A stretch of DNA of 64,000 nt from an uncultured Nitrososphaerota archaeon (GTDB lineage: Archaea > Thermoproteota > Nitrososphaeria > Nitrososphaerales > Gagatemarchaeaceae): assembly GCA_963838925.1 (NCBI GenBank), contig CAWISW010000003.1, forward strand, positions 544,001-608,000, read 5' to 3'. The position numbers were made by a program, and so were the translations under genes. The notes under the pieces are model-generated. The model saw only the letters and a list, made by a program, of their open reading frames with translations. It searched no databases and had not been told where the DNA came from. Positions 7,580 through 39,257 of this stretch are shown one piece after another. Within the stretch, counting starts at the first letter, position 1. Each line of letters starts with the position of its first letter.

Positions 7580-7599
7580 CGCTCTCGGTTGTGGGAAGC
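7580..7599 (+). promoter_or_regulatory. Regulon palindrome site (weak variant)
   Basis: CGCTCTCG-GTTG-TGGGAAGC, then 11 nt, then TTTTAAG. Confidence 0.5.
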
Positions 7600-7743
7600 G
7601 TCTGTCAAAGTTTTAAGGGGTCGAGCACTCCGCCAGGCGCATGCGCCGCGTTCTCCCCCCCGGCGAGGGCCACCTTCCCGATTACTCGTCGAATGCCGCC
7701 ATGTCGGGTTCTAGCGCGCGGCAGTAGAGGCCGGAGTCGAGGA

Positions 7744-8634
7744 ATGACGACGCAAGAACTCTCCAAAGTCGCGCCAGAGGAGGCTAGGGACGAGATGACG
7801 GACTACACGACGTACAAGCGCTTAGCCGGCTCTGAGAAGAACCAGAGCAACCGGGACATGTTCGAGAAGCTGAGCGGCATGGAGCACAACCACTACACTC
7901 TCTGGATGAAGTACTTGCCCCCCGGCACAAAGGAGATCGGACCGAAGAAAGGGACGGTCTACCTCGTCCTGTTCCTCCGGCTCATCTTCGGCGCCTCATT
8001 CGCCATCAAGTTCCTCGAGCGCCGCGAAAAGTCGACGATTGGAAAGTACGATGCCCTGAAGCCATCAGTCCCAGCGGAGGACATGGCCGCGTTCCAGTCC
8101 ATGATAGAAGACGAGAAAGGGCACGAGACCGCCTTCGCGGATGTCGTCGCTGGGAGCTACGTCAAGTACATCTCGTTCATCGTCCTCGGCCTAGCCGACG
8201 CGCTGGTAGAGATAGCCGGAATCCACGCCGGGTCGCTAGGAATCTACGACTCGACCGAGCTGACGGGCCTGGCCGGGATCGTAGCAGGGGCCGCGGCCTC
8301 CGTGGCCATGGCGTCGGCGGCCTTCGCCCAAGCCAAACAGGGATTCGAAGGCTCGCCAGGGCTGGCAGCGGGCTACACCGGCGGGTCCTACTTTGTCGCC
8401 GCCGTCGCGCTAGCCCTCCCCTACTTCCTGACCCACACGATGCTGGTGGCGATCACCTCTTCCGTGTTCGTGGGCCTAACCATCATCGCGTTCGTGACCT
8501 GGTACAACTCCATCATCGTGGGCAGCCGGTTCCTGAGGGAGTTCTTCGTGCTCGCGGGCGTGATGCTAGGGGCGACCTTTGCGCTCTACGTCTTCGGCAG
8601 CGTGATCCGCGTCGCCTTCGGGATATCGATCTAA
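7744..8634 (+). CDS. Rubrerythrin/ferritin-like domain fused to a VIT1/CCC1 transporter
   Basis: Diiron E..H motifs (EHNH, DEKGHE) followed by IVLGLADALVE and TM helices. ATG start at 7744. Confidence 0.88.
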   Translation: MTTQELSKVAPEEARDEMTDYTTYKRLAGSEKNQSNRDMFEKLSGMEHNHYTLWMKYLPPGTKEIGPKKGTVYLVLFLRLIFGASFAIKFLERREKSTIGKYDALKPSVPAEDMAAFQSMIEDEKGHETAFADVVAGSYVKYISFIVLGLADALVEIAGIHAGSLGIYDSTELTGLAGIVAGAAASVAMASAAFAQAKQGFEGSPGLAAGYTGGSYFVAAVALALPYFLTHTMLVAITSSVFVGLTIIAFVTWYNSIIVGSRFLREFFVLAGVMLGATFALYVFGSVIRVAFGISI

Positions 8635-8645
8635 CCGGACGGACC

Positions 8646-10277
8646 CTAGAATACTCCGGCGATGACGCCGTCGTCGCTGAGCGTAATCCTCTCCGCGGCA
8701 GGGGACGACGGGAGCCCGGGCATCCTCGATATCTCGCCCATCTCGACTATCACGTATCCCGCCCCGGCGGCCAGCTCGGCGTCGTGCACCGTGGCGGTGA
8801 ACCCTTGAGGCCTCCCGGCCTTCTTCGGGTCGTCTGAGAGCGAGGTGGCCGTCTTGGCGACGCAGACCGGGATTCCCCCATATCCGAGCCTCGTTATCTT
8901 CTCAAGCTCCGCGGATGCGACCTCGGTGTAAGAGACGCCGTCTCCCCCGTACATCGCCCTTACGATCTTCCCTACCTTGTCGCGGATGGAGTCGTCGAGC
9001 GCGTAGACCGGCCTGCAGGTCCCGCCCTTGCCTGCCTCCTCCACGACGAGCTGGGCCAGGCGCCGAGACCCCTCGCCTCCCTCCGCGAAGGCCGAAATGG
9101 TCGAGAACGGGACGCCCTCTCCCGCGCAAAAGCCGGAGACGGCGCGCACCTCCTCGTCCGTGTCTCCGTCGAACAGGTTCAGCGCGACAACTGGCCTGAG
9201 CCCCAGGGCGCGCACGTTCTCGATGTGCTTTGCGAGGTTGGCCAGCCCGGCTCTCACCGCCTCGGGGTCTGGCCCCTCCGCGACGGGGGGCGCTCCTGCG
9301 TCGGTGCCTTTCCCATGGTGCCTCAACGCCCTGATTGTCGCGACGATGACCGCCGCGTCGACGCCCACACCGGCCACGCGCGTGACGATGTCGATGAACT
9401 TCTCAGCACCGAGGTCGCTCCCGAAGCCTGCCTCAACCACCGCGTAGTCGGCGGACTGCAACGCGAGCGCTATCGAGATCACGCTGCAAGTGCCGTGCGC
9501 GATGTTCCCGAAAGGCCCCCCGTGCACGAGCGCGGGCGTGCCCTCGCTCGTCTGGACCAGGTTCGGCTGGAGGGCGTCCCTCAGCAGGGCCGCCATCGCG
9601 CCCACTATCCTCAGGTCAGCCGCGGTGACGGGCCGCCCATCCTTGGTGTACGCAACCATCATCCTCCCCAGCCGAGACTTCAGGTCCGGGTAGTCCTTGC
9701 TCAGGCAGAGGATCGCCATCACCTCGGACGCGGCCGTGATGATGAACTTCCCCTCGTGAGGGGTCCCGTTCTTGTCCCCCATCGCGACCCTCACCTCTCT
9801 TAGCGCCCGGTCCTCGACGTCGAGGACCCTAGGCCAGAGGATGGCCTCGGGGTCTATGCCCAAGGCGTTGCCGTGGAATATGTGGTTGTCCACAGCCGCC
9901 GCGAGGAGGTTGTGGGCGGAGGTGATCGCCTCCATGTCTCCAGTGAGCCGCATGTTCACCTCCTGCATCGGCTCGAGCGTGGACCTCCCCCCTCCCGCGC
10001 CCCCTCCCTTTATCCCGAAGACCGGCCCGAGGGAAGGCTGCCTGATGCAGGCGACCGAGAGCTTGCCGAGCTTGGCGAGCCCCATCGCGAGCCCGATCGA
10101 GACCACGGTCTTCCCCTCCCCATGGGATGTGGGGGTCATCCCCGTCACTAGCACCAGCTTTCCCCTGGCGGGGCGCCCGAGCGAGGAGAGCGATATCTTG
10201 GCCTTGTACTTGCCGAAGTGAGTCGCGAGCCCGTCATCCAGGCCCAGCTCAGCGACGATTTCTTCGATGAGTCGCAT
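8646..10277 (-). CDS. fhs: Formate--tetrahydrofolate ligase
   Basis: TPTSHGEGKT, RQPSLGPVFGIKGGGAGGG, HGGPFGNIAHG, EAGFGSDLGAEKF and MPGLP motifs. Probable ATG at 10277. Confidence 0.95.
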   Translation of the reverse strand: MRLIEEIVAELGLDDGLATHFGKYKAKISLSSLGRPARGKLVLVTGMTPTSHGEGKTVVSIGLAMGLAKLGKLSVACIRQPSLGPVFGIKGGGAGGGRSTLEPMQEVNMRLTGDMEAITSAHNLLAAAVDNHIFHGNALGIDPEAILWPRVLDVEDRALREVRVAMGDKNGTPHEGKFIITAASEVMAILCLSKDYPDLKSRLGRMMVAYTKDGRPVTAADLRIVGAMAALLRDALQPNLVQTSEGTPALVHGGPFGNIAHGTCSVISIALALQSADYAVVEAGFGSDLGAEKFIDIVTRVAGVGVDAAVIVATIRALRHHGKGTDAGAPPVAEGPDPEAVRAGLANLAKHIENVRALGLRPVVALNLFDGDTDEEVRAVSGFCAGEGVPFSTISAFAEGGEGSRRLAQLVVEEAGKGGTCRPVYALDDSIRDKVGKIVRAMYGGDGVSYTEVASAELEKITRLGYGGIPVCVAKTATSLSDDPKKAGRPQGFTATVHDAELAAGAGYVIVEMGEISRMPGLPSSPAAERITLSDDGVIAGVF

Positions 10278-10328
10278 CTTCCCAGCGCGCGGTATCCCAG
10301 CGCTCCTTATTGTTGGTTCGGAGTGGCC

Positions 10329-10348
10329 GGTTATCCAAAGTGGGAATC
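10329..10348 (+). promoter_or_regulatory. Regulon palindrome site upstream of USP
   Basis: GGTTATCC-AAAG-TGGGAATC, then 11 nt, then TTAAATA; ATG at 10390. Confidence 0.65.
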
Positions 10349-10389
10349 GCCTCGCCTCCTTAAATAAACGGCAAGGCTCTCGGCAGCCC

Positions 10390-10824
10390 ATGACAGAGAT
10401 CATGGTGGCAGTAGACGGCTGCGAGCACTCAGACAGGATCGTGGACACGGCAATCGGCCTGGCCAAGATGATGTCCGCGAAGATCGTCCTCGCCTACGCG
10501 TCGCCCAAGATCGCCGTCCCCGAGCAGTACGTCGACGCCATCAAGGCGGACGAGCCAGACATCGAGGGATACTACCAGGAGTTCTCCGAGAGGATGCTCG
10601 GTGGGCTCGACGAGAGGGTGAGGAAGCAAAAGGTCCCTGTCGAGACGATCTTCGGCACCGGAAACGCGTCCGACTTCATATTATCGAAGGCAAAAGAGAG
10701 GAAGGACAGCATGATAGTCATAGGGGTGCACGGCCTCCACAACCTCGGCAGGCTTCGGGCTCTCGGCAGCACGTCTAGGCGCGTGATCGAGAACTCGTCG
10801 ATACCCGTAGTCGCTGTCCCGTAA
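10390..10824 (+). CDS. Universal stress protein
   Basis: IMVAVDG, IVIGVHG and LGSTSRRV motifs. Confidence 0.9.
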   Translation: MTEIMVAVDGCEHSDRIVDTAIGLAKMMSAKIVLAYASPKIAVPEQYVDAIKADEPDIEGYYQEFSERMLGGLDERVRKQKVPVETIFGTGNASDFILSKAKERKDSMIVIGVHGLHNLGRLRALGSTSRRVIENSSIPVVAVP

Positions 10825-11048: not shown

Positions 11049-11060
11049 GCCGATGGCCCC

Positions 11061-14825: not shown

Positions 14826-16081
14826 TCAAGTGTTGGCGCTTATCAACCTCAGGCGGATTCTTCGGCGTGACCGGCGCCCAGCTTTCGATTGACCGCATGA
14901 TTGATCTCTACGTCAATCAAGGTCGGTCGCTTCACGCAATTTCACGCGAGTTTGGACTCCAAAGGAGAACAATAGCAAGAAATCTAAGGAAGAACGGAGT
15001 GAGACTAAGATCCTACGAAGAATCAATCGATCTTCTGAGAAGAGTCCGTCAAGCCGAAGTTGAGAAGATTAGAACAATGTATTCGGTGGACAAGCTGAGT
15101 TCATTGAAGATTGGCCGTAGGTTGGGGATTAGCGGTTCATGGGTGAGGCAAGTTATGGACAGGTCTGGTATCCCTAGGAGGACTGTTTCGCAGGCATGCA
15201 TGCGATTCACTAAGGTTGGTTTTTCAGGCGATGAACACGAAAGGGCCTACTTGATGGGTCTACGGGCAGGCGACCTAAATTCTGCTGTCTATGGAAACCA
15301 AGTCAGAGTAGCTACCTCGACGACTCATCCGGCAATGTGGCGGCTATTGGTTTCGGCATTCGGAAAGAACGGTCGAGTCAACAAGACGGCTGCGAGGAGC
15401 AAACACGGTTTCGGGTGGTTGACCTATGCATATCTCGACAGAAGCTTCGACTTCTTGCTTTCTAAGACTGTTAGTATCCCTAAGGTTTTCCTAGAAAGAG
15501 AGGATTTGTTCCTTAGCTTTCTAGCTGGATACGTTGACGCCGAGGGCTCGTTCAGAGTATATCTCAATTCGACTCACAAGGCGATGTCATTTCGTATCAA
15601 CTCAGAGGACAGACTTCTTCTAAAGGACATTCGTGACGGGCTTCGAAAAATGGGATACCATGTGTATTGGGCGCTCGCAGCAAAACGAGGATTAAACAAC
15701 GGGAAGAGATATCGCCGAAGCCTATGGTCTCTCGGAATGTTTCGTGAATCCGAAATCATTGACCTGATTCAAAAATTGCCGATTCGGCATGACGAGAAGA
15801 CAAGACAAGTACGGCTGCTGTCTTGGAGCGTAAGAAGGAGTTGGGACATCGTAGAGCCTCGGGCAATTGCACTCAGATCTTCAATAAAGAATGAAGTATC
15901 AAGATTCGTGGGAGAAGCCAAGAAAGTCTATCTCTCGAAGCATTCATTGGCTGGATGATTTCTTCGATAACTCAGCAAACAATTCCTTCGCCCTGTCAAA
16001 TCTGATTTTCCTCTCCTCAATCATTATATCCGCTATCTTGTCCACGAGCTTCCCCTCCGCGCCTGTGTTCGCTGCAAGGTT
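14826..16081. mobile_element. Homing-endonuclease insertion carrying a replacement 3' end of HMG-CoA reductase
   Basis: AT-richer segment bounded by two in-register copies of the Asn codon of HARN (16081 and 14825). It contains a LAGLIDADG ORF and the new C-terminus. Confidence 0.85.
14867..15958 (+). CDS. Free-standing LAGLIDADG homing endonuclease with two N-terminal HTH repeats
   Basis: AYLMGLRAGDL and FLAGYVDAEGSF motifs; HTH repeats SLHAISREFGL..RTI..NLRKNGV and SSLKIGRRLGIS..WV..MDRSGIP; atypical codon usage. Confidence 0.9.
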   Translation: MTGAQLSIDRMIDLYVNQGRSLHAISREFGLQRRTIARNLRKNGVRLRSYEESIDLLRRVRQAEVEKIRTMYSVDKLSSLKIGRRLGISGSWVRQVMDRSGIPRRTVSQACMRFTKVGFSGDEHERAYLMGLRAGDLNSAVYGNQVRVATSTTHPAMWRLLVSAFGKNGRVNKTAARSKHGFGWLTYAYLDRSFDFLLSKTVSIPKVFLEREDLFLSFLAGYVDAEGSFRVYLNSTHKAMSFRINSEDRLLLKDIRDGLRKMGYHVYWALAAKRGLNNGKRYRRSLWSLGMFRESEIIDLIQKLPIRHDEKTRQVRLLSWSVRRSWDIVEPRAIALRSSIKNEVSRFVGEAKKVYLSKHSLAG

Positions 16082-20786: not shown

Positions 20787-20875
20787 CGAAGAATCTTCGT
20801 GGAGCGAGAGACGCGTAAAAACCTTTTCCGAAAGGATTTATAGAATCTGGCAGTAGTTTTCTCCCGAAGATTCCA

Positions 20876-21463: not shown

Positions 21464-21469
21464 GCGGAG

Positions 21470-24523: not shown

Positions 24524-24745
24524 TCAAAGTGCCACCTCGAGCACCTTTTCCCTAGACTTCGCCCCGCTCACGATGACCACCTTCGACTTCGATACCCCGA
24601 AGTGCTCGGCCATGATCTCGACCAGCCTCCTGTTCGCCCTCCCGTCGATCGCCTTCGCGTCCACCTTGACCTCGAAGCTCAGCTCGCCGACCTTGGTGAC
24701 TCGCGCCTGCCTCGAGTTCGGCGTCACATGGACGTGGATGAGCAT
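24524..24745 (-). CDS. DUF167/YggU family protein
   Basis: VHVTPNS...DGRAN..LV....FGV.KS.V.I.SG.KSR.K pattern. Confidence 0.9.
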   Translation of the reverse strand: MLIHVHVTPNSRQARVTKVGELSFEVKVDAKAIDGRANRRLVEIMAEHFGVSKSKVVIVSGAKSREKVLEVAL

Positions 24746-24787
24746 CTCTCGAAGGCCACGGCCTGCGCATCCTTAACGTTACGACAG

Positions 24788-25282
24788 TCACGGGCGCACG
24801 GCTTTCGCGCTCTCCAGCAGGGCGGCTCCGACCTGCTTCCCGACCTGCTGGAACCGCAGCTCCTCTCCCGCCTTGAGGACTGTGGCCTCCGCTCTGTCCT
24901 TTCTTATCGGGCTGACAACGACCGCTGACTCGTGCGGGGCGAGGAGCCTGAGGCCGAGGCCCTTCAGCGCCTTCTCGATGAACTTGGCCGCGCTGCCAGA
25001 GATGCGCGAACCAACCTTGGTGTCGAACGCGAAACCATACTTTCCGGACAGCCCTGCCCCATCGAGCTTCGCAATGAAGTCCTTGATCGGTTTGGACGCG
25101 CTGAACGCCTCCGTCGGAGCCCCGATGCAAAGCAGGTCGTATTCCTTGAGAGAGTCTACCTCCACATCCTTCCAGTTGAGGCAATCCGTCTGGACGCCGC
25201 CCTCTCCGATTCCCGACTGGATGGCCCGGGCAATCTTTTCAGTGTTCCCGAACCGCGTGTCGTAGATGACGCAGGCTCTCAA
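24788..25282 (-). CDS. Flavodoxin-like protein
   Basis: IYDTRFGNTEKIA..I, IGAPT and FAFDT motifs. Confidence 0.9.
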   Translation of the reverse strand: MRACVIYDTRFGNTEKIARAIQSGIGEGGVQTDCLNWKDVEVDSLKEYDLLCIGAPTEAFSASKPIKDFIAKLDGAGLSGKYGFAFDTKVGSRISGSAAKFIEKALKGLGLRLLAPHESAVVVSPIRKDRAEATVLKAGEELRFQQVGKQVGAALLESAKAVRP

Positions 25283-25294
25283 GCGCCAGGCCTC

Positions 25295-25909
25295 CTACGT
25301 GTGCGCCGGAGCTGCTTGGAGAGGTTGGCCCGCCGGCATTGGCGGTTTGTCCTCTATCGAGAAGAACGCGACGACGACCAAGACCTGGGCAACGAACAGG
25401 AGAAGGAAACCTACCAGAATTATCGTGGTCGCGGCTCCTATGAGGTAGACCAGACCCGCGGTCTCAAACATCCCTACGCCCAGCTTCGAAGAGATCGACT
25501 TGTAGCTCCTCCTGACGTAGACGGCCGAGACGAGCAGCATCGCCCAGACGACGGCAAGGCCGATGAGTAAGGAGCCTATGAGGGCGATCCAGTCCCCTGT
25601 CGGGACGGTAGACGGGTTGAAGCTGTAGTTGGGCCCAAAGTTGAGGTTGTTGAGGCCCACGAACCGAAGGACGCTTCCTACAACGACCAGCGCGCCCACC
25701 ACTATCCCTGCGATGGCCAGCCCCACCGAGACGAGCATGTTGCTGAAGATGGACTTGTCGCCGACGATTTGGGAGATGTCCCTTATCGCCACCAGCATCA
25801 GGACGAAGCCGACTATGCCGAGAACCGATCCCACGCTAGGAACCGCGGTGAGGAGCACAAAGATCGAGCCGACGGCCCCGAGGGTCTTCGCCTGTGACAG
25901 GTTCGGCAT
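25295..25909 (-). CDS. DUF996 membrane protein
   Basis: AKTLG.VGSI...; F.TAG.VYLIGA.T.IILVG..L...A.VL.VVAFFS pattern. Confidence 0.8.
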   Translation of the reverse strand: MPNLSQAKTLGAVGSIFVLLTAVPSVGSVLGIVGFVLMLVAIRDISQIVGDKSIFSNMLVSVGLAIAGIVVGALVVVGSVLRFVGLNNLNFGPNYSFNPSTVPTGDWIALIGSLLIGLAVVWAMLLVSAVYVRRSYKSISSKLGVGMFETAGLVYLIGAATTIILVGFLLLFVAQVLVVVAFFSIEDKPPMPAGQPLQAAPAHT

Positions 25910-25959
25910 CTACTTCACCGCGTTTGTTTGGAGCTGACCAGGATAAGAAGCGGGCATAC

Positions 25960-25979
25960 GATTCTCAGTCCTTGGAATG
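25960..25979 (-). promoter_or_regulatory. Regulon palindrome site upstream of DUF996-flavodoxin
   Basis: GATTCTCA-GTCC-TTGGAATG. On the minus strand, 11 nt then TCTTATCC. Confidence 0.65.
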
Positions 25980-28826: not shown

Positions 28827-28870
28827 CCAAGAGGACGAGCCGAAGCGCTCCGCATAAAAGGGCGACGGGC

Positions 28871-28890
28871 GATTCTCAATTGTGACACCG
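28871..28890 (-). promoter_or_regulatory. Regulon palindrome site upstream of the membrane-protein pair
   Basis: GATTCTCA-ATTG-TGACACCG. On the minus strand, 11 nt then TTTTATG. Confidence 0.7.
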
Positions 28891-28920: not shown

Positions 28921-28940
28921 AGTTCTTGCGCTTGGGAATC
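28921..28940 (+). promoter_or_regulatory. Regulon palindrome site upstream of SDR
   Basis: AGTTCTTG-CGCT-TGGGAATC, then 9 nt, then TTTAAGTA. Confidence 0.65.
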
Positions 28941-28990
28941 GTCCTCCCGTTTAAGTAGAAGAGCGACCTCTCGGACATACGAAGATAGCT

Positions 28991-29782
28991 TTGCAGTCTA
29001 CAAGTGAATCCGGAAAGGGCGGTAAGGCGTTGGAAGGCAAGATCGCTCTCATAACAGGGGCGGGGTCGGGCGTCGGCAGGGCGACGGCGAACCTGTTCGC
29101 AAAGAACGGATGCGCTGTGCTCGTGGTCGACCTCATCCCCGACAGAGTGAATCAGGTCGTCGCGGAGATCAAGGCTGCTGGAGGGAAGGCGACGGGCATG
29201 GCGATGGACCTCTCGCTCAGGGCCGAGGTCGACCGCATGGTCGACGAGGCGCTGAAGACGCTCGGGAGGGTCGACATACTCTGCAACAACGCGGGCATAA
29301 TGGACGGCGTGAGGCCGGTCGCCGAGACCACCGACGACGTCTGGGAGAAGGTGCTGAGCATCAACCTCAACGCCCCATTCTGGGCGAGCAGGAGGGTCAT
29401 CCCGTCGATGCTCAAGGTGGGAGCCGGGGTCATAATCAACACGTCTTCCGTGGCCGGACTCTTCGGGGGCGTTGCGGGCGCCGCCTACACGGTCTCCAAG
29501 CATGGGCTGATCGGGCTCACCAGGAACATCGCGGCATTCTACGGGACCAAGGGCATAAGGTGCAACGCAATGGTGCTGGGTGCGGTGAACACGAACATCG
29601 GGGTTGGAAGCGGCCAGCCCAGCGCCAGCGGGATGGAGCAACTCGGCAAGGTCGCCGCGATGATTCCAAGGATGGCCGAGCCGGCCGAGATTGCCGAGCT
29701 GGCTCTTTTCCTGGCATCCGCAAAGTCGAGCTACATGAACGGGTCGTGTGTGGTGATCGATGGCGGCTGGACCGTGTTCTAG
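28991..29782 (+). CDS. Short-chain dehydrogenase/reductase
   Basis: TGAGSGVG, NNAG and Y.VSK motifs. Confidence 0.95.
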   Translation: MQSTSESGKGGKALEGKIALITGAGSGVGRATANLFAKNGCAVLVVDLIPDRVNQVVAEIKAAGGKATGMAMDLSLRAEVDRMVDEALKTLGRVDILCNNAGIMDGVRPVAETTDDVWEKVLSINLNAPFWASRRVIPSMLKVGAGVIINTSSVAGLFGGVAGAAYTVSKHGLIGLTRNIAAFYGTKGIRCNAMVLGAVNTNIGVGSGQPSASGMEQLGKVAAMIPRMAEPAEIAELALFLASAKSSYMNGSCVVIDGGWTVF

Positions 29783-30709: not shown

Positions 30710-30729
30710 CTTTCTCACCGCCGAGAATC
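30710..30729 (+). promoter_or_regulatory. Regulon palindrome site upstream of Hsp20
   Basis: CTTTCTCA-CCGC-CGAGAATC, then 10 nt, then TTTAAG. Confidence 0.75.
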
Positions 30730-30782
30730 GTCTCCCCGCTTTAAGAGCAACCCCTTCGAATCTGAACTCAAGTAGAGTTGCC

Positions 30783-31313
30783 ATGGCAGAGAAGCAGAAG
30801 GTTCCTGTGAGGAAGGGGCGGAAAGAGCCAACAGCGATTGCGCCGTGGCGTCCCGAAGACTACCAAAGCAGCATGGACCGGATGTTTGGGGACTTCGAGT
30901 CGCGGTTTCAGCGCCTGTTGGCGCCCTTCCCCGCGGGAGGCTGGCTCGGACCGGGAAGGCGCCGGTGGCTGGAGACGCAAGACGTCAGGCTGCCCTACGC
31001 CGACCTAATCGACTCCGGCAAGGAGTACCGCGTAGTGGCCGAGGTTCCGGGCATCCCGAGAGAGAAGCTGGACATAACCGTGACCGACCGAGAGATCAAG
31101 ATCGAAGGCGAGGCGAAGACGGATCTGCGTGAAGAGAAGGAGGGGTTCGTACGCCAAGAGAGAGGCTACTCTAGGGTCTCCAGGAGGCTGGCCTTCCCCG
31201 AACCTGTGGTGGCCGACAAGGCCGAAGCAAGCCTCAACAACGGCGTGCTCGAGGTCAAGGTCCCCAAGAAGACGCCCACAACCTTCGCAAGGCGCAAGGT
31301 AGCCGTCAGATAG
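30783..31313 (+). CDS. Hsp20/alpha-crystallin family protein
   Basis: AEVPG, ER.Y..V.R...FP and A.LNNGVLEVKVPK motifs. Confidence 0.92.
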   Translation: MAEKQKVPVRKGRKEPTAIAPWRPEDYQSSMDRMFGDFESRFQRLLAPFPAGGWLGPGRRRWLETQDVRLPYADLIDSGKEYRVVAEVPGIPREKLDITVTDREIKIEGEAKTDLREEKEGFVRQERGYSRVSRRLAFPEPVVADKAEASLNNGVLEVKVPKKTPTTFARRKVAVR

Positions 31314-31318: not shown

Positions 31319-31540
31319 ATGGTCCCGGCAGAGACCGCCAAGGAGTTCCTTAGCTTGGGAGCGGAAGTGAATCCATCAGACGTCCGAAGGGGGAGGAGAA
31401 AGCTCCTCGAAGAGCTTGCGAAGGACCTCGATCCTGCCACTAGGGAAGCCGTCACCAAGCTGTACGAGAACTGGAAGGGACAGGAATCCGAAGAAGAGCT
31501 CAAGAAGCTGCTCCAGAAGCGTCGTCGTTCCCAACCCTGA
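31319..31540 (+). CDS. Small hypothetical protein
   Basis: 73-aa ORF 5 nt after Hsp20, with host-like codons. Confidence 0.6.
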   Translation: MVPAETAKEFLSLGAEVNPSDVRRGRRKLLEELAKDLDPATREAVTKLYENWKGQESEEELKKLLQKRRRSQP

Positions 31541-31545
31541 AAATC
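31526..31545 (+). promoter_or_regulatory. Regulon palindrome site upstream of hydrolase-PRTase
   Basis: CGTTCCCA-ACCC-TGAAAATC, then 11 nt, then TTAAGA. Confidence 0.65.
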
Positions 31546-31600
31546 GTGTTGTCTCCTTAAGAGTCCGCGGGGTCAGGTTGTCTCCCGTGTTGGGTGACTA

Positions 31601-32293
31601 GTGGAGTTGACAGGAAAGGGCGCCGGCCTGAGCGGGATCGCAGTGAGCGACGTGAAGGTCGAAGCACGCTCGGTCACTCTTCCCGGAATATTGGCGATGC
31701 CGAAGAAGAATCCGAGGGCGGTCGTCCTGTTCGCGCACGGGAGCGGCAGCAGTCGGCTCAGTCCGAGGAACTCCTACGTCGCGACGGTCCTCCACAAGTC
31801 CGGCTTTGGAACCTTGCTCTTCGACCTGCTCACGAGCAGGGAAGACCTGGTCTACGACAACCGTTTCGACATCAACCTTCTCGCTGAGAGACTGACGGCA
31901 GCCACAGAGTGGCTGCGAGAGCAGAAGGGATTCGCCGACCTCGATGTCGGATACTTTGGCGCAAGCACGGGGGCCGCGGCGGCGCTGCAGGCTTCGGTCG
32001 GAAGGCGGGACGTCAAAGCGATCGTCTCCAGGGGCGGAAGGCCAGATCTCGCTTGGGACTACCTCGACCGCGTCGAGGCCCCCACGCTGCTCATCGTGGG
32101 AGGGAGCGACGATGAGGCTGTCTTAGACCTCAACGAACGGGCCCTTCAAAGGCTCAACGCGGCCGGGAAGAGGAAGGACAACAAGCTCGTCATAATCCCC
32201 GGAGCCACGCACCTCTTTGAAGAACCGGGGACGCTCGAGGAGGTCGCAAGAGCGGCTGCGGCGTGGTTCCTGAAGTTCACAGGTGGATGCTGA
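31601..32293 (+). CDS. Dienelactone-hydrolase-like alpha/beta hydrolase (PRTase-associated)
   Basis: FAHGSGSSRLSPRN, GYFGASTGAAAAL, VSRGGRPDLA and PGATHLFEEPG motifs. Confidence 0.9.
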   Translation: MELTGKGAGLSGIAVSDVKVEARSVTLPGILAMPKKNPRAVVLFAHGSGSSRLSPRNSYVATVLHKSGFGTLLFDLLTSREDLVYDNRFDINLLAERLTAATEWLREQKGFADLDVGYFGASTGAAAALQASVGRRDVKAIVSRGGRPDLAWDYLDRVEAPTLLIVGGSDDEAVLDLNERALQRLNAAGKRKDNKLVIIPGATHLFEEPGTLEEVARAAAAWFLKFTGGC

Positions 32294-32947
32294 GTGTTCA
32301 AAGACAGGGCTGAGGCTGGAAGGATGCTAGCTGGCGCTCTTGCCTTCCTCAAGGGCGATAGAGACGTGGTAGTGCTCGCGATCCCGCGCGGCGGGGTGCC
32401 CGTGGCCAAGGAGGTCGCGGACGCTCTAGGCGCCCCGATGGACTTGGTCGTGACGCGGAAGATAGGCGCCCCTGAGGAGCCGGAGCTTGCCGTGGGGGCC
32501 GTCACGCAGGACGGCGAGATGATCGTTGACGCTGGAACGATTAGGCTGCTCCGAGTACCGGCCGATTATCTGAAGCGAGAGTCAGCGAGGCAGATCAAGG
32601 AGATAGGCAACAGGATGAAGAAGTACCGAGGAGACCGACCCTACCCTGCTTTGAGCGGGAAGACCGTGGTCATAGTGGACGACGGGATAGCGACCGGCCT
32701 CACAATCAGAGCGGCTATCCAGTCCGTGAGGGCAAGGAACCCCGCGAAGATCATCGTGGCAGCCCCGGTGGGACCTCCCGACTGCGTGGAGGAGCTCTCG
32801 AAGCTCGTGGACAGAGTCGTCTGCCTGAGCACGCCTCAGGACCTCGAGGCCATAGGACAATTCTATGAGCAGTTCGAGCAGGTCCAGGACGAGGTCGTAG
32901 AAGCGCTCATGGCTGGCACAGCCCACGCCGGACGGGAAGCGGCCTAG
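32294..32947 (+). CDS. Phosphoribosyltransferase (type I)
   Basis: F.DR.EAG..LA, IPRGGVPVA, RKIGAP..PE.A.GA and VDDGIATG motifs. Confidence 0.92.
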   Translation: MFKDRAEAGRMLAGALAFLKGDRDVVVLAIPRGGVPVAKEVADALGAPMDLVVTRKIGAPEEPELAVGAVTQDGEMIVDAGTIRLLRVPADYLKRESARQIKEIGNRMKKYRGDRPYPALSGKTVVIVDDGIATGLTIRAAIQSVRARNPAKIIVAAPVGPPDCVEELSKLVDRVVCLSTPQDLEAIGQFYEQFEQVQDEVVEALMAGTAHAGREAA

Positions 32948-32976: not shown

Positions 32977-34245
32977 CTACTGCTTTCCCTGCTCCCAGCG
33001 CAGCGTCGGCGAGACCGAGTTCACCTTCTTCACCAGGGCCCTTGTCCTGTCCCTGAGGTCATCAAGAGGGGCGAACTTCCGGACGATCTCACCGTCCCTG
33101 ATGAGCGGGCTAAGGAGCGGGACGTACCCTCCTTCGGGAGCTTTGTCGCTGGTCGTCACTACGTCGCTCATGGTCTCTGGGTCTCGATACACGTTCTTCT
33201 TGCCCGCCAGGTCTCCCCTCTTCGCGCGCGGAACCCATTTCCCGCTGCCATCCTGAATCTGGACTATCTTGCAGCAGAAGTCGATTACCGGGGCAGCAGA
33301 GACGCTCGTCCCTATCCCGAACCCGTCCACCCAGTCCCTGAGCTCGACCACGTCCTTCTCGTCGATGCCGCCGGACACGATTATCTTGACGTTCTCACCT
33401 CCGCGTAGCTTGAGCTCCCACCTGACCTCCTGGACGAGCTTCCTCATGTCTCCCCTCCTCGAGCCTGGAGTGTCAAGCCTGACGCCGTAGAGCCTGCTCC
33501 CGAGCGTTTGTAGGGCGAGTATCGAGGCGAACTTCTCGTCGCTGATGGTGTCGACCAGCACTATCCTCGGGATGTCCTCGGGGAGGGCGCGGTCGAAGAT
33601 CCTCCACGCCTCGGCTTCGTCTCCGACGCACAGGATGAAGGCGTGGGGCATGGTTCCGCTCGCCTTCCTCTTCATCAGCCTCGCCCCGAGCACGTTCGAG
33701 ACGCTGTCGAGCCCGCCCAGTATCGAGCTTCTTTCCACGATGGGGGCCAGCGCAGGGTGCACCCTCCTCGTCCCGAAGCCGATTATCATCTTCCCCTCGG
33801 CTAGGTAGACGAGCCGGGCGGCCTTCGTGCAGATTCCGCTCGCCTGGCAAAGGAATCCGAGCACCGGGTTCTCGTACACCCCGAAGTCCCCGTAGCGGCC
33901 GGTGATCCTAAGGACCGGTTCGTTGACAGCAAGCTCGGGGTCGGTCAGGAACACCTCGCCCTCCTCCATCGCGTCGACGTCGACGGGGAGTCCTTGCAGG
34001 AGCTTCGCAACCTCGTAGATGCCAGAGACGACCGCCCACTTGGAGCCGTAGGGGTTCTTCCGGGTGAAGACCTCCATCGTAACCATGGGGTTGATCCCCG
34101 CGGACTTCAACGCGTCCCTCGCGTACTCGAAGTAGACGTCGGTCGTCACCCCGCCCTTGATCTCCTCTTCGTTAGGCATCCAGAAGAGACGGTCTTCCAG
34201 GTCGCTCTTCCTTGTCGTCGACCGCTGAGGAGTCGAAGAACTCAC
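32977..34245 (-). CDS. pncB: Nicotinate phosphoribosyltransferase
   Basis: TTDVYF, FGTRRVHP, GTMPHA, LVDT, GVRLDT, SGG and GIGT motifs. Confidence 0.93.
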   Translation of the reverse strand: MSSSTPQRSTTRKSDLEDRLFWMPNEEEIKGGVTTDVYFEYARDALKSAGINPMVTMEVFTRKNPYGSKWAVVSGIYEVAKLLQGLPVDVDAMEEGEVFLTDPELAVNEPVLRITGRYGDFGVYENPVLGFLCQASGICTKAARLVYLAEGKMIIGFGTRRVHPALAPIVERSSILGGLDSVSNVLGARLMKRKASGTMPHAFILCVGDEAEAWRIFDRALPEDIPRIVLVDTISDEKFASILALQTLGSRLYGVRLDTPGSRRGDMRKLVQEVRWELKLRGGENVKIIVSGGIDEKDVVELRDWVDGFGIGTSVSAAPVIDFCCKIVQIQDGSGKWVPRAKRGDLAGKKNVYRDPETMSDVVTTSDKAPEGGYVPLLSPLIRDGEIVRKFAPLDDLRDRTRALVKKVNSVSPTLRWEQGKQ

Positions 34246-34263
34246 CCTTCCCGAGCCCGCAGC

Positions 34264-34707
34264 CTACTTCACGACCAGGACGTCGCACTTGGCGTGGTTG
34301 ATGACAGCCGTCGAGACGCTTCCCATCAGGAACCTCTCGACTCCTCGCATCCCTCGCCTGCCCACCACTATCAGGTTCACCTTGTACTCGGTGGCTATGG
34401 TGAGGATCATGTCCGCCGGTTGGCCCTCTTCGGCCGACGCGTAGGTGTCTTTGAGTCCAGAGCTCTTGGCGATGTCGAGGGCGGTGCTGGTAAGGTCCTC
34501 GGCATTCTCCTTCGTCTGCTCGTTGAACCGCTTGTATATCGCTCCGCTTGCGTACGCTGCGTAGCTCACGGTATCTGCAACCACAACGACTCTCAGCTCT
34601 CCCTTTGACTGCCTTGCGAGCTCGATCGCCCTGCGGAGCGCCCTCTCGGCGTTTTCTGAGCCATCAAATCCGACCAGAATCCTATCGTAGACTACCTTTT
34701 GGCTCAA
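34264..34707 (-). CDS. Universal stress protein
   Basis: ILVGFDGS, IVVGRRG and MGSVSTAV motifs. Confidence 0.93.
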   Translation of the reverse strand: MSQKVVYDRILVGFDGSENAERALRRAIELARQSKGELRVVVVADTVSYAAYASGAIYKRFNEQTKENAEDLTSTALDIAKSSGLKDTYASAEEGQPADMILTIATEYKVNLIVVGRRGMRGVERFLMGSVSTAVINHAKCDVLVVK

Positions 34708-34790
34708 GCGACGCCTTCCCCCTTCGAGATGATATTCAAGTCAGTCATTGGCCGTGTCTGAGGGCAGCCGCATATTTAACATCCGTAAAC

Positions 34791-34810
34791 GATTCTCAAG
34801 ATTGATTTCG
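34791..34810 (-). promoter_or_regulatory. Regulon palindrome site upstream of USP-pncB
   Basis: GATTCTCA-AGAT-TGATTTCG. On the minus strand, 11 nt then TTAAATA. Confidence 0.75.
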
Positions 34811-36060: not shown

Positions 36061-36080
36061 GATTGCCAAGCTTGAGAATC
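36061..36080 (+). promoter_or_regulatory. Regulon palindrome site upstream of CBS protein
   Basis: GATTGCCA-AGCT-TGAGAATC, then 10 nt, then TTTTTAAG. Confidence 0.8.
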
Positions 36081-36130
36081 GTGCCTCTGCTTTTTAAGAC
36101 CGCAACTCGCTCCGCGCGACGAAGATACAA

Positions 36131-36637
36131 TTGTCGCTAATCGATGCGCCAGTGAGAAGCGCCATGACCAAGAACGTCAAGACGGTCGAGGCAACGAAGA
36201 CGCTCGCAGACTGCGTGAAGTCGATGCGGGATGCAGACATCGGGTGCATGGTCGTGGTCGGGAAGGACCAAACACCCGTCGGAATATTCACCGAGAGGGA
36301 TCTGGTGAACAAGATTGCGGAAAAAGGTCACGCAGTCCTTAGCCAACAGATGGCGCAGGTCATGAACAAGCCCCTGACGATCATCTCCCCGGTTGCGACG
36401 ATCTGGGATGCGGTGACGCTCATGGGGCGTGCCAACATCAGGCGGCTTCCGGTGGTGGAGAACGGCCACTTGGTCGGAATACTGACTGAGAGGGACGTGT
36501 TCCGACTCATACTGGCTCAACAGAACCTGCTGTTGGAGACCGTGTCCGAGTCCCTTCCTGCTGCCACCAGAGAGCAGGTGAGGGGAATAGCCGGTCGCTT
36601 CGGCCTTGAGAGACCCCCCGGCCGAGCGAGCGCTTGA
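36131..36637 (+). CDS. CBS domain protein
   Basis: VGIFTERD and IRRLPVV...VGILTERD motifs. Confidence 0.92.
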   Translation: MSLIDAPVRSAMTKNVKTVEATKTLADCVKSMRDADIGCMVVVGKDQTPVGIFTERDLVNKIAEKGHAVLSQQMAQVMNKPLTIISPVATIWDAVTLMGRANIRRLPVVENGHLVGILTERDVFRLILAQQNLLLETVSESLPAATREQVRGIAGRFGLERPPGRASA

Positions 36638-36662
36638 TCGAAGCTCTTTGAGAGTAGCAACA

Positions 36663-38273
36663 TCACAGCCAAGTTACCGAGAAGTGGTCGCCTCGAGAGA
36701 CCAGCGGGGCGAACGGCGTCCCTGTCCCGGCGTAGAACTGCGAAAGCCACTCGTACAGCTGCAGCCTCATGTCCTGGATGTAGACGATTACGCCCTCCAG
36801 GCTTATCACCGCGACGTTGAGGATTACGGCGACGACCACGCCGGCGGCTCCGTATGACAGGACGCCGCCCACCAAGCTCCCCAGCAGCGTGGTCGTGATC
36901 AGTAGTACCCCAAGCCGAATGTAGCTGAGCGTGTTCAGGAAGAACTCGAAGGGCTTCGCTACCGATTCAAGGAGGCCCTCGCCCAACCCCCTTGCCGCTC
37001 TCCGCAGACTTCGAGTTGACAGATATTCGCGAACCGGGTGCCCCACCACCATGAAGAGCAACGTTGCGACTATCACAGGCAGAGACACGCCTGCAGTGAC
37101 CGCGATGGGGACGCTCAGACCCAAGAGATTATTGAATATGGGCGTCGGCGCGGTGCTAGTAAGCAAGACCCCGAAGTTCAGGCCTGTTCCTGCCACGGCG
37201 AAGCCGAACGGAATGAAGAAGGCGTAGAGTACGATGGTTGGGAGCCTATCCAGGAAGGCGTCGAGGTAGTTCCCGGCCCTCTCTTGGTTGACAAAGGCGA
37301 TCGAGTATCCGCTCGCCAGATGGAATGCGCCGATTAGTATCGCCACCTCAAGAAGAAAGGGTATCGACGAGAGCGTGAAGCTGGCGCTTAGGGCAGGCGG
37401 GAGAGGAATCACCTTCTGCAAAGGCGACTGGAAGGGCACGCCGAAGAACGACCCCCTGACGAAGCCGAACACCGTCGTCGAGAAGCTGAGGATGAAGATG
37501 AGCTCTCCCCAAGCCTTGTATGCAGTCCGGTAGACCAGATACAGCCCGAAAGCGAGCAGCGCGATGCCGTGGCCCACGTCAGCAAACATCACACCGAAGA
37601 AGAACGGGAAGACAAACGCAAGGATAGGGGTCGGGTCGACCTCTCCATACTTGGGGAGGCCGCGCTCGAGCGTGAGGCTCTCGAAGACCGAGACTAGTCG
37701 AGGGTTCACGAGCAGAGTCGGGATGTATGCCACATCTTTGCCCTGCGTCTTGACCGGCTCGGCTGCGACGAGGTAGCTTCCCATCGAGTCCTTGAACGAG
37801 TCAAGCGCGTGCGCGGGGACGAATCCCTCGGTCCTCAGCTTCGCGTCCTCAGAGGGGTACACGAAGATCCTCTGGAGGTCGCTGAATACCATGAGAGACG
37901 CTTCCTGGATAGCCAAGAGGACTTGCGTCACCCCCCACTTGTCGTCCGACTCGGTGAACAACGAGAGGTTCTTCTCGATTATCTCAATGTACTCCTCCAG
38001 CACTCTCACGAGTTCGTCTACGTCGTGCGCTTCGAACTTCTCGACCTGCTTCCCTCGGTTGGCAGTCTTGAACAGGCCTTCCCCGAGCAGCTCGCTGGCC
38101 TGCGCGTAGATCTCGTGAGCCTTGGAGCCCGTCAGAAGCAGGCCGATGTCCTGTACCATCCCTCCCTTCCTTGACGGGTGGAATGCGATGAACTTGATCA
38201 CCTTCGCCATCAGCCGGCCCGCCTCGGACTTGGGCGCCTCCAGAGTCACCCTGACGAGACGAGCCACCGCCAA
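36663..38273 (-). CDS. A/V-type ATPase subunit I (a)-like protein, stand-alone and shortened
   Basis: PKYGEVDPT, FFFG.MF.D.GHG, LSY.RL (essential Arg) and RL..YEW..FY.G.G.PF.P motifs. Confidence 0.88.
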   Translation of the reverse strand: MAVARLVRVTLEAPKSEAGRLMAKVIKFIAFHPSRKGGMVQDIGLLLTGSKAHEIYAQASELLGEGLFKTANRGKQVEKFEAHDVDELVRVLEEYIEIIEKNLSLFTESDDKWGVTQVLLAIQEASLMVFSDLQRIFVYPSEDAKLRTEGFVPAHALDSFKDSMGSYLVAAEPVKTQGKDVAYIPTLLVNPRLVSVFESLTLERGLPKYGEVDPTPILAFVFPFFFGVMFADVGHGIALLAFGLYLVYRTAYKAWGELIFILSFSTTVFGFVRGSFFGVPFQSPLQKVIPLPPALSASFTLSSIPFLLEVAILIGAFHLASGYSIAFVNQERAGNYLDAFLDRLPTIVLYAFFIPFGFAVAGTGLNFGVLLTSTAPTPIFNNLLGLSVPIAVTAGVSLPVIVATLLFMVVGHPVREYLSTRSLRRAARGLGEGLLESVAKPFEFFLNTLSYIRLGVLLITTTLLGSLVGGVLSYGAAGVVVAVILNVAVISLEGVIVYIQDMRLQLYEWLSQFYAGTGTPFAPLVSRGDHFSVTWL

Positions 38274-38297
38274 CTTACAGCGCCTTCAGGATTGCTC

Positions 38298-38759
38298 TCA
38301 GCGTATCACGAGTACCGCGCACCCGGAGTACTCTACAAGGCCTGACGCCACGCTCCCCACGAGGATCCTCCTCGAAGGTGTAGTCCCACGAGTTCCGGTA
38401 ACGATGAGGTCTGCCTTCATCGTCTCCGCATAACCGAGGATTGCGTCCACGACGGAATACGCACCCACGACAATCTCAGTCTTGACGCCGATTCCGTGTC
38501 TCGCGGCTATCTCCTCAACATCTTTCATCCACTTCTTCGCGTTCCTCCTTGCGTTCGCGTAGTTGTCGGCGAGCCCTCCCTGCAGCTCGAATTGCGGGGC
38601 CGGCACGACGTGGAGAGCCAGAAGCTCCGCCCCGTCCTGCCGAGCGATGCGCGCCGCGTGCTCCGCTCCCCTCAGTGACACTTCCGAGCCATCCACGGCG
38701 ACCACAATCCGAGTGAAGCCTTTCTTGCCTGTCGACGGCGCAGACATGCGTGCTTCCAT
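38298..38759 (-). CDS. Universal stress protein
   Basis: IVVAVDGS, DLIVTGTRG and VGSVA motifs. Start may be ATG 38747. Confidence 0.93.
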   Translation of the reverse strand: MEARMSAPSTGKKGFTRIVVAVDGSEVSLRGAEHAARIARQDGAELLALHVVPAPQFELQGGLADNYANARRNAKKWMKDVEEIAARHGIGVKTEIVVGAYSVVDAILGYAETMKADLIVTGTRGTTPSRRILVGSVASGLVEYSGCAVLVIR

Positions 38760-38788
38760 CGGCCCTTTCGTATTTAATCAGGCGGTGG

Positions 38789-38808
38789 CTTTCTCAATCG
38801 TGAGAATG
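38789..38808 (-). promoter_or_regulatory. Regulon palindrome site upstream of USP-atpI-like
   Basis: CTTTCTCA-ATCG-TGAGAATG. On the minus strand, 11 nt then TTAAATA. Confidence 0.8.
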
Positions 38809-38892
38809 GTCGGTAGGAATCTGGAATCGCTCTCCTCGCCTTAGGACGCCAAATTAAAGGCCAAAATAGTCTGCCCTCTAGGCTGCATAGCA

Positions 38893-39189
38893 ATGAGCTC
38901 CGACAACGAAGAGGAAGAGGCGGTCGTCCAAGAACGCGAGGTGACCGCAGAGCCTGACGCCAAGTCAGTCGAAGAGGCGGAGGAAGAAGTCGACGAGCTC
39001 GAAGAAGAGGTAGAGGAGGAGACCGAAGAGAAGGAGTCGGAGAAGATCGAAGACAGGCTGGACGAAAAACAGAGCGGCAGCAGCACCGCCGCCGCAAGAA
39101 GGCGACGAAGCAAGAAGAAGGCCAAGCCGAAGCCGAAGAAGCCTCCTCAGAAGAAGGTCAGACGCGGGTCCAAGACAAAGCGCCGTTGA
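38893..39189 (+). CDS. Low-complexity protein with an acidic N-half and Lys/Arg-rich tail
   Basis: 98 aa; a Glu-rich block, then RRRRSKKKAKPKPKK; ATTAAA upstream. Confidence 0.65.
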   Translation: MSSDNEEEEAVVQEREVTAEPDAKSVEEAEEEVDELEEEVEEETEEKESEKIEDRLDEKQSGSSTAAARRRRSKKKAKPKPKKPPQKKVRRGSKTKRR

Positions 39190-39196
39190 TCGGCGC

Positions 39197-39216
39197 AGTT
39201 CTCAAATCTGAGAATC
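39197..39216 (+). promoter_or_regulatory. Regulon palindrome site upstream of the Tat flavoprotein operon
   Basis: AGTTCTCA-AATC-TGAGAATC, then 11 nt, then TTATATA. Confidence 0.85.
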
Positions 39217-39257
39217 GCCTTCGCGCGTTATATATTAGAGAACGCACGAAGAATCCC

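Follow-up and report, generated by a model that had tools for sequence, protein, structure and literature searches.

The window analysed here is a 64,000-nucleotide (nt) stretch (positions 544001-608000 of contig C3) of the 1.84 Mb genome G000 (three contigs, 61% G+C) of an uncultured archaeon of the Gagatemarchaeaceae, Group I.1c thaumarchaea that live in acidic soil and peat and do not oxidise ammonia. It contains a recurrent palindromic element positioned directly upstream of TATA boxes, which we propose to be the binding site of a transcriptional activator. The eleven 20-mers listed in an initial annotation of the window were all found at their positions, ten of them strong and the one at 7580 weak. 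Oriented to the served gene, the consensus is GATTCTCA-N4-TGAGAATCG, followed by 11 nt, a TATA box and, approximately 22-39 nt further, the start codon; the fuller layout reads GATTCTCA-N4-TGAGAATC(G), a spacer rich in pyrimidines, a TATA-like box (TTAAATA, TTATATA or TTTAAG) and a nearby start codon, with TTCTCA-N4-TGAGAA as the core of the 20-nt palindrome. Mismatches were scored on the 16 specified bases of GATTCTCA-N4-TGAGAATC (Table 1).

The target genes named in the initial annotation were recovered by Pfam and NCBIfam profile searches: all three universal stress protein (USP) genes, Hsp20, a CBS-pair protein, a hydrolase with a phosphoribosyltransferase, the pncB-like and ATPase-like genes each downstream of a USP gene, the flavoprotein operon with its Tat signal, a short-chain dehydrogenase (SDR) and the DUF996-flavodoxin genes. 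Only the gene at 7693-8634 needs a different name, as its product matched a ferritin-like (Rubrerythrin) model and not VIT1. The DUF996, flavodoxin and DUF167 genes probably form one operon, judging from their short intergenic gaps, while the V-ATPase subunit I-like protein downstream of one USP gene gave NCBIfam matches far under the cut-off. By reading, the FAD_binding_2 flavoprotein starts with a twin-arginine signal (SRRQLL) and a hydrophobic stretch.

Table 1. Predicted sites in the window, the genes behind them and the candidate regulator P0001 (positions are those of the window unless a contig is given; palindromes on the minus strand are given in minus-strand reading; aa, amino acids)
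Feature	Position	Strand	Mismatches	Remarks
Site 7580: weak palindrome, 11 nt, TATA-like TTTTAAGG (7611-7618)	7580..7618	+	6	
Ferritin-like/membrane protein gene	7693-8634	+		Ferritin-like N-terminus, hydrophobic C-terminus (by reading)
Site 10329: palindrome GGTTATCCAAAGTGGGAATC, 11 nt, TATA TTAAATAA	10329..10367	+	4	34.8 bits; ATG 22 nt past TATA end
USP	10390..10824	+		Pfam Usp, 82 bits
Site 25960: palindrome CATTCCAAGGACTGAGAATC, 11 nt, poor TATA TCTTATCC	25941..25979	-	3	29.7 bits
Putative operon: DUF996 (25295-25909), flavodoxin (24788-25282), DUF167 (24524-24745)	24524..25909	-		Pfam
Site 28871: palindrome CGGTGTCACAATTGAGAATC, 11 nt, TATA TTTTATGC	28852..28890	-	4	33.7 bits; ATG 25 nt past TATA end
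Two proteins, 190 aa and 134 aa	27842..28826	-		No Pfam or NCBIfam match
Site 28921: palindrome AGTTCTTGCGCTTGGGAATC, 10 nt, TATA TTAAGTAG	28921..28958	+	5	19.0 bits, weakest accepted site
SDR	28991..29782	+		Pfam adh_short, 186 bits
Site 30710: palindrome CTTTCTCACCGCCGAGAATC, 10-11 nt, TATA TTTAAGAG	30710..30747	+	3	30.8 bits
Hsp20	30783..31313	+		Pfam HSP20
Site 31526: palindrome CGTTCCCAACCCTGAAAATC, 11 nt, TATA TTAAGAGT	31526..31564	+	4	34.8 bits
Dienelactone-hydrolase-type hydrolase (31601-32293), phosphoribosyltransferase (32294-32947)	31601..32947	+		Pfam DLH, Pribosyltran
Site 34791: palindrome CGAAATCAATCTTGAGAATC, 11 nt, TATA TTAAATAT	34772..34810	-	5	30.1 bits
USP (34264-34707), then QRPTase-family pncB-like gene (32977-34245)	32977..34707	-		Pfam Usp, QRPTase_N, QRPTase_C
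Site 36061: palindrome GATTGCCAAGCTTGAGAATC, 11 nt, TATA TTTTAAGA	36061..36099	+	2	36.6 bits
CBS-pair protein	36131..36637	+		Pfam CBS, 100.8 bits
Site 38789: palindrome CATTCTCACGATTGAGAAAG, 11 nt, TATA TTAAATAC	38770..38808	-	3	36.2 bits
USP (38298-38759), then V-ATPase subunit I-like membrane protein (36663-38273)	36663..38759	-		Pfam Usp, V_ATPase_I
Site 39197: palindrome AGTTCTCAAATCTGAGAATC, 11 nt, TATA TTATATAT	39197..39235	+	2	40.7 bits, top window site; ATG 22 nt past TATA end
Operon: FAD_binding_2 flavoprotein and two open reading frames without family match	39258..42649	+		Pfam
P0001, 229 aa	Contig C2 90680-91369			HTH_10 (PF04967), 69.6 bits against a cut-off of 23.1, residues 154-206

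A palindrome at a fixed distance from the TATA box

With at most three mismatches allowed, the window holds five matches where 0.39 were expected, a number reached by none of 100 shuffled versions. In the whole genome there were 31 such sites against a mean of 3.3 in ten third-order-Markov simulated genomes, while at four mismatches the figures were 72 and 35; the element is strongly enriched over background in the window and in the genome. Ten perfect TTCTCA-N4-TGAGAA cores are present in the genome, and 27 of the 31 best sites are located within the 20% of the genome left non-coding by the gene calls. When palindrome, variable spacer and TATA box were combined in a single composite model, the scores were bimodal, with 36 sites at 19-44 bits and all others at or below 17.7 bits. 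The window contains ten of these approximately 36 regulon sites, and the 28 kb directly upstream of it another three, which makes the window part of a regulon island. The site at 7580 was missed by the composite model and is the least secure of the eleven; the gene behind it may begin only at 7744, which would give it a long leader.

The set is also discrete. We collected 285 promoter configurations with a strong TATA box and a coding start 15-45 nt downstream, and inspected the fixed position at which the palindrome would be expected: eight had at most four mismatches, none had five or six, and 277 had 7-16, with a random expectation of about 12. Because the palindrome is present at only eight of the 285 strong promoters and the intermediate class is empty, we reject the possibility, raised in the initial annotation, that it is a generic extension of the B recognition element (BRE); non-regulon promoters carry no information content in the palindrome region.

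For an unbiased view of the spacing, both flanks of each of the 31 best sites (62 oriented flanks in all) were searched for the best TATA-like 8-mer within 0-44 nt, and 26 flanks passed the score: 17 had the box at offset 11 and three at offset 10, with the remaining six scattered. The spacer of the final set (n=36) is 11 nt at 30 sites, 10 nt at four and 12 nt at two, as obtained with a composite model that slightly penalised spacers other than 11. The rigid spacing proposed for the window thus holds across the genome and in relatives. Within the window, the initial annotation had counted eight spacers of 11 nt, two of 10 nt and one of 9 nt; the eight and the two (28921 and 30710) stand, while the minus-strand site at 25960 is ambiguous, with 11 nt to TCTTATCC or 13 nt to TTATCC, the earlier count of 9 differing because the start of the TATA box was placed differently. 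At all 36 sites the palindrome ends 10-12 nt before the TATA box, upstream of and without overlap with TATA box or BRE, and its centre lies 21 nt, or two helical turns, before the TATA box. At most sites the first start codon follows 22-39 nt past the TATA end, which fits leaderless or short-leader mRNAs.

The two halves of the palindrome are not equally conserved. As noted previously for the window, the TATA-proximal half is the better kept, with 0.89 mismatches on average against 2.03 for the distal half (better at 25 and worse at six of the 36 sites, Wilcoxon P=3e-4), and a G follows the ATC at 30 of the 36 sites. Palindrome and asymmetry together would fit a dimer with its proximal subunit fixed beside the BRE. 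The core promoters differ as well: ordinary promoters are A-rich at positions -7 to -3 (A frequency 0.32-0.45 against a background of 0.195), which resembles a BRE signal, whereas the regulon promoters are A-poor (0.08-0.14) and C-rich in the BRE region. The A count at -6 to -2 was 0.39 in the regulon set (n=36) versus 1.64 in the 277 other promoters (P=9e-12), and for 20 sites picked by palindrome and TATA box only it was 0.45 versus 1.64 (P=7e-7). Used as a sequence proxy only, these counts suggest that the regulon core promoters are intrinsically weak and BRE-poor, and this lends support to a role of the palindrome in activation.

Other promoters of the window lack the element. As the initial annotation had reported, it is absent before the men, cop (P-type ATPase/YHS), htpX and three tRNA genes, where the best matches within 150 nt upstream have 6-9 mismatches; the same search and range apply to the promoters of the second Hsp20, second CBS, PadR, P-II and HMG-CoA reductase genes, which have no site. 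The tRNA genes concerned measure 94-98 nt (2517-2610, 18312-18409 and 23964-24059), those for Val and Ala probably containing introns, and there is a partial tRNA-like match (model positions 8-63) at 24458-24507. A second stress cluster at 19869-21922 consists of an htpX-type M48 protease (19869-20786, minus strand), an Hsp20 (20876-21463) and a CBS pair (21470-21922, minus strand). Since this cluster has no palindrome (best 7-8 mismatches), the genome possesses two differently wired sets of the same protein families. The earlier statement that no cognate regulator is encoded in the window was borne out, its transcription factor-like genes being a PadR gene beside its own ABC exporter and a gene for an HTH_23/38 protein. 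The latter (363 aa, 14867-15958) has a weak N-terminal HTH_23/HTH_38 match and no upstream site, and may be transposase-like or a regulator.

Targets elsewhere in the genome and conservation across the order

Outside the window, the sites precede haem biosynthesis genes (hemA-hemC-hemD and a gene for a small GlutR_dimer protein, which diverge from one bidirectional site), a four-subunit 2-oxoacid:ferredoxin oxidoreductase, DsrE/TusA, two DrrA-type ABC exporters, AllG with permeases and a Bmp substrate-binding protein. Further targets encode a PhoU_div protein, a phosphoenolpyruvate-utilising enzyme, arginine decarboxylase, SPFH/zinc-ribbon proteins, an Rce1-like protease and a metallophosphoesterase. 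A 54-aa open reading frame (ORF) with a partial HTH_10 match (C2 54138-54236), located shortly before the site of the Rce1-like protease gene (C2 54354), may be a decayed copy of an HTH_10 gene. The regulon as a whole centres on stress protection, haem and redox and electron carriers, a 'dormancy-like' set.

The best-scoring site of the genome, in the region C2 399429-404500 (L006), is located before genes for two proteins of 520 and 598 aa without family assignment, behind which comes the gene for a Rieske protein (arsenite-oxidase small-subunit type). Beside them are a cupredoxin (346 aa) and a fusion of a ribbon-helix-helix (RHH) domain with a [4Fe-4S] ferredoxin (140 aa), each with its own site, and the genes of this region may encode an uncharacterised membrane redox complex. 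The RHH part of the fusion protein (L006:3499-3921) is VapB/CopG-like and the ferredoxin part is of the single-cluster kind, and the protein looks like a redox-sensing DNA-binding protein. It is one of three regulator-like targets, the others being P0002, with an ACT-like and a V4R domain, and the HTH_10 protein P0001. Two V4R proteins are linked to the regulon, one of 137 aa encoded divergently from P0001 (L004:5033-5446) and P0002 with its own site (L008:2993-3820), the latter showing weak similarity to the V4R part of MsvR.

We then looked at the distribution of the pattern TTCTCANNNNTGAGAATC (at most one mismatch) in related genomes, with the reversed pattern as control and with totals for the other families (labelled f) summed by hand. 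Matches were present in 17/18 genomes of the same genus and in 85/91 genomes of the family, covering 10/10 genera (665 matches versus 15 for the control). Beyond the family, they were found in 7/7 genomes of f7 (280 versus 6, with up to 100 per genome), 7/7 of f4 (29 versus 3), 10/10 of f9 (32 versus 4), 18/22 of f12 (36 versus 4) and 16/21 of f15 (25 versus 11). By far the most sites are found in the f7 genomes (2.4-4.6 Mb), where they are often densely clustered on single contigs; G143 reaches 100 matches. There are essentially no motif matches in G005, a same-genus genome (90% complete), or in G038 (100% complete).

The architecture and the kind of target are kept in relatives. The one-contig genome G007 has 23 composite sites with the 11-nt spacing, serving genes for USP, Hsp20, two FAD_binding_2 proteins, TatA, CtaA, a radical-SAM protein and an ArsR-type protein; its orthologues are only 42-58% identical to those of the genome studied here, and the Hsp20 orthologue (42%) also has a site. 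At L038:3054-4193 of this genome, a bidirectional palindrome, GATTTTCAATATTGAGAATC, is flanked on both sides by a TATA box at 11 nt and serves the ArsR-type gene and a divergent FmdE-like/zinc-finger gene. The ArsR protein is 64-78% identical across genera, far above typical orthologues, which suggests its lateral spread.

In five 99%-complete f12 genomes, the pattern followed by N11 and TTWAWW gave 45 matches versus seven for the control, and these were clustered in islands. The islands of G171, G173 and G177 contain 57 oriented AT-rich sites (TTATCA or TTTTCA-N4-TGATAA or TGAAAA), 21 of which have a start codon 18-22 nt past the TATA box. Of the 131 ORFs in these islands, 62 were searched against Pfam; their products include nine USP, nine CBS, two Hsp20 and two phosphoribosyltransferase proteins, an SDR and a VIT1 protein, and also cupredoxins, P-II proteins, a thermosome subunit, an Amt transporter and a paralogue of transcription factor B (TFB). 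That the f12 genomes belong to ammonia oxidisers is a guess, based in part on the Amt gene. From these islands and the matches in other families we conclude that the element and its core targets are conserved well beyond the Gagatemarchaeaceae.

A predicted activator and the alternatives

The explanation we favour, to which we give a probability of roughly 0.7, is that the palindrome is the predicted site of a dimeric transcription factor activating about 36 BRE-poor promoters, and that this arrangement is conserved across the order Nitrososphaerales. The dimer would bind directly upstream of BRE and TATA box, and its proximal subunit would contact TFB and/or the TATA-binding protein (TBP), aiding assembly on cores without a normal BRE; the regulator would thereby compensate for the missing BRE, and the promoters would be silent without it. 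Both activation and the control of the set by one factor are inferred. As site and core targets are kept across the order, the regulator would be an old and widely conserved factor, with P0001 a second-tier regulator inside the regulon. Our guess is that the signal sensed is oxygen/redox or energy limitation, because the targets comprise haem synthesis, ferredoxin and flavodoxin, cupredoxin and Rieske proteins, USP, CBS and Hsp20 proteins and NAD salvage.

Several points weigh against this explanation. Binding, transcription start and regulation are all predicted from sequence, and a site in an upstream position can also repress or act in both ways. Because the sites used to train the composite model were those it had itself found, neither the set size of 36 nor the spacer statistics can be taken as exact, and the control set picked without the spacer removes this circularity only in part. 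The gene calls used for the non-coding fraction were home-made and crude, while the scan of the f12 islands employed a relaxed consensus in AT-rich DNA without a control of its own. Finally, no transcription factor was found with a distribution that tracks that of the motif.

The same arrangement could be read as the operator of a repressor or dual regulator, whose binding would keep TFB away until the protein is released by a signal. Only 4-5 nt indeed separate the palindrome's proximal edge from the BRE position, and many archaeal regulators act both ways depending on the position of their site. We nevertheless regard repression as improbable: the site never overlaps TATA box, BRE or start, a simple steric block does not need base-exact spacing, and BRE-poor cores are expected where help, rather than silencing, is needed. 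Even less credible is a composite promoter class in which the palindrome and the C-rich BRE region together serve a dedicated TFB paralogue, comparable to an alternative sigma factor. It would explain why the BRE region differs systematically from that of other promoters, and the island of the f12 genome G171 does contain a TFB paralogue (L179:11672-12580, with TFIIB repeats and a zinc ribbon) between site-bearing P-II genes, but a 20-bp element of two-fold symmetry at 11 nt from the TATA box is unlike anything that a monomeric TFB core domain would be expected to recognise, and there is no TFB gene in the window's island, although no survey aimed at TFB paralogues was made.

A third alternative, which we consider unlikely but less so than the two above, names the cognate regulator: the cysteine-rich HTH_10 protein P0001 and its orthologues would be an autoregulated sensor with two ferredoxin-like domains, four cysteines that may bind a metal or Fe-S cluster and a LuxR/sigma-region-4-like helix-turn-helix (HTH); its dimers would bind the palindrome, in the way proposed for NarO/DmsR-type regulators of haloarchaea. 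P0001 is the only one of approximately 33 HTH candidates in the genome with a promoter site (one mismatch, 67 nt before the start), and members of its family were found by profile in 72/91 genomes of the Gagatemarchaeaceae. In a promoter set of 100 HTH_10 members from 60-odd genomes (88 from profile matches and 12 more), 47 show the palindrome at 60-74 nt before the start codon, followed after 11 nt by a TATA box. All 47 are in one clade of 51 members that includes P0001 (SH-aLRT 99 in a quick maximum-likelihood tree), versus none of the 49 members outside this clade; the distribution of the site over the tree needs five changes, whereas shuffled labels needed 33.4 on average and none of 500 shuffles gave so low a number. 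By reading, the top three f7 orthologues of P0001 also have the site, and the clade is characterised by invariant C31, C92, C102 and C105 and by a helix LR(S/A/N)AE where the paralogues have LRRAE. Among genomes at least 90% complete, at least three motif matches were present in 25/27 with any member of this protein family versus 1/6 without (Fisher one-sided P~5e-4, calculated by hand), a comparison for which the threshold was set after seeing the data and in which related genomes are not independent. The geometry also resembles that of the haloarchaeal CGAA-N4-TTCG box, located 66-79 nt before the ATG in the parts of the source that were available (PMC10062603).

Against this stands the absence of such a protein from genomes with the regulon. 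No HTH_10 (PF04967) match was obtained in G035 (96% complete, with 13 motif matches and three perfect palindromes) or in the five f12 genomes that are 99% complete and contain motif islands; the one-contig genome G007 with its 23 sites has only a 27%-identical HTH_10 paralogue without a site, and in the window's own genus the P0001 clade is missing from 20/23 genomes. Moreover, other regulator-like genes are equally recurrent and patchy targets, namely ArsR (G007, G050) and the RHH-[4Fe-4S] fusion, and a site before a regulator gene is therefore not specific evidence for autoregulation. Since genomes with the regulon lack a clade member, we read P0001 as a target and not as the master regulator; it is probably a conserved regulon member acting as second-tier regulator.

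As a protein, P0001 has some features of its own. The gene is divergently transcribed from a V4R gene, and the AlphaFold model (pLDDT 83.1) predicts two ferredoxin-like domains and a LuxR/sigma-4-like HTH, the latter with a modelled fold resembling DesR, EsrB and sigma region 4 (Z 6.4-6.8). No PDB match was obtained by Foldseek at E<=0.001 or by sequence search; the best structural alignment was with Ta1207 (Z 8.8 over 139 residues, VIA-align), and alignments with ACT, HMA and NikR-like ferredoxin folds gave Z 6-8, a range which the tool calls common. A variant box, TTTCCA-N4-TGGAAA, is in some genomes practically confined to the promoter of the HTH_10 gene itself and does not represent a genome-wide switch of specificity. 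A group of 219-aa HTH_10 proteins (79-84% conserved, six same-genus genomes) is a paralogue without the site, the sole exception being a copy in G002 whose site lies 194 nt upstream.

Other candidates were examined and set aside. None of the 30 winged-HTH candidates obtained in TrmB, HTH_20 and HTH_Crp_2 searches of the genome has a palindrome with at most four mismatches upstream. An Lrp/AsnC-like gene beside the site at C3 525699 is also present in the motif-free G038 and G005 and was not found in G171, while the ArsR-type gene with a site in G007 has no homologue in the genome studied here and is present in only 26/91 family genomes. For the RHH-[4Fe-4S] fusion there were matches in 37/91 family genomes, some 28 of which were full length by our count, and none in G007; judging from the coordinates, it adjoins the HTH_10 clade gene in G070 and G072. 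For a 382-aa CBS protein encoded in the f12 islands, the genome studied here has only a homologue of 26% identity, located away from any site.

Returning to the dimeric activator, a bolder and rather doubtful version is that a master regulator from a family not recognised as DNA-binding operates throughout the Nitrososphaerales, ammonia oxidisers included, and drives the HTH_10 and RHH-[4Fe-4S] sensors as part of a DosR-like dormancy or low-energy programme. This programme would, equally tentatively, consist of USP, CBS, Hsp20, phosphoribosyltransferase, NAD salvage, haem and alternative electron carriers. If true, it would be the first regulatory code for the entry of thaumarchaea into inactivity and their exit from it, in soil and sea.

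Relation to known regulatory systems

Ammonia-oxidising thaumarchaea and the heterotrophic soil thaumarchaea related to them rank among the most abundant archaea, and their gene regulation is almost unstudied. The element described here provides a precise cis-element, a defined target set and a promoter architecture of palindrome, 11 nt and BRE-poor core, which is base-exact, is present in at least three Nitrososphaerales families and is directly testable. The regulator could be isolated with a 40-bp DNA bait, and the regulon genes could be used as metatranscriptomic markers of physiological state, probably oxygen/redox or energy stress. The regulon also gives a context to uncharacterised targets such as the 190/134-aa pair, the 520/598-aa proteins beside the Rieske protein and the V-ATPase-I-like gene. 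Our literature searches, in the portions of the sources that they reached, found no description of the motif, a search with the motif string giving primer-type coincidences only, and a term search of the Gagatemarchaeaceae genome paper returned no promoter or regulator analysis in the text covered (PMC10640624).

Upstream activators known from archaea include Ptr2 of Methanocaldococcus jannaschii and TFB-RF1 (PF1088) of Pyrococcus furiosus. As with their sites, the palindrome is located directly upstream of BRE and TATA box at weak cores, with a proposed recruitment of TBP or TFB; unlike these, it has a different sequence, serves about 36 promoters with base-exact spacing and is conserved across an order. 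The likeness to bacterial class II CRP/FNR sites concerns a dimer site with a 4-6-nt centre at a fixed distance from the core promoter, whereas the machinery here is the archaeal TBP/TFB and the sole weak HTH_Crp_2-like match in the genome has no upstream site.

With regard to gene content, the closest counterpart is the DosR regulon of Mycobacterium tuberculosis, in which Rv2626c is a CBS protein. According to the part of the source available to us, that regulon includes USPs, HspX (alpha-crystallin/Hsp20), Rv2626c and pncB2 (PMC11203133). Several USPs, Hsp20, pncB and CBS under one palindromic site are thus common to both, although the likeness is one of content only: domain of life, promoter type and motif are different, and the 20-bp DosR box differs by reading. 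No DosR/DosS-type two-component system was seen, with no search for DosR/DosS or GerE/NarL-type regulators made.

In geometry, the best comparison is with the haloarchaea, in which, as far as the available parts of two papers describe it, a denitrification box CGAAYATDKTYG is associated with NarO/DmsR-type HTH_10 (Bat-like) regulators, and mutation of the box lowers promoter activity in H. mediterranei (PMC10062603, PMC11218638). On that partial basis the two systems have in common an inverted repeat with a 4-nt centre 60-80 nt before the start, a low-oxygen/redox theme and an HTH_10 protein without PAS or GAF domains that is involved or a regulon member. They differ in phylum and in the half-sites, which are TTCTCA/TGAGAA here and CGAA/TTCG in the haloarchaea, leaving only the N4 geometry in common, and in the Nitrososphaerales HTH_10 is missing from several regulon-bearing genomes (G035 and the five f12 genomes). 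As a kind of element, an archaeal upstream activator site that defines a regulon is known; this motif is new as far as the literature searches reach.

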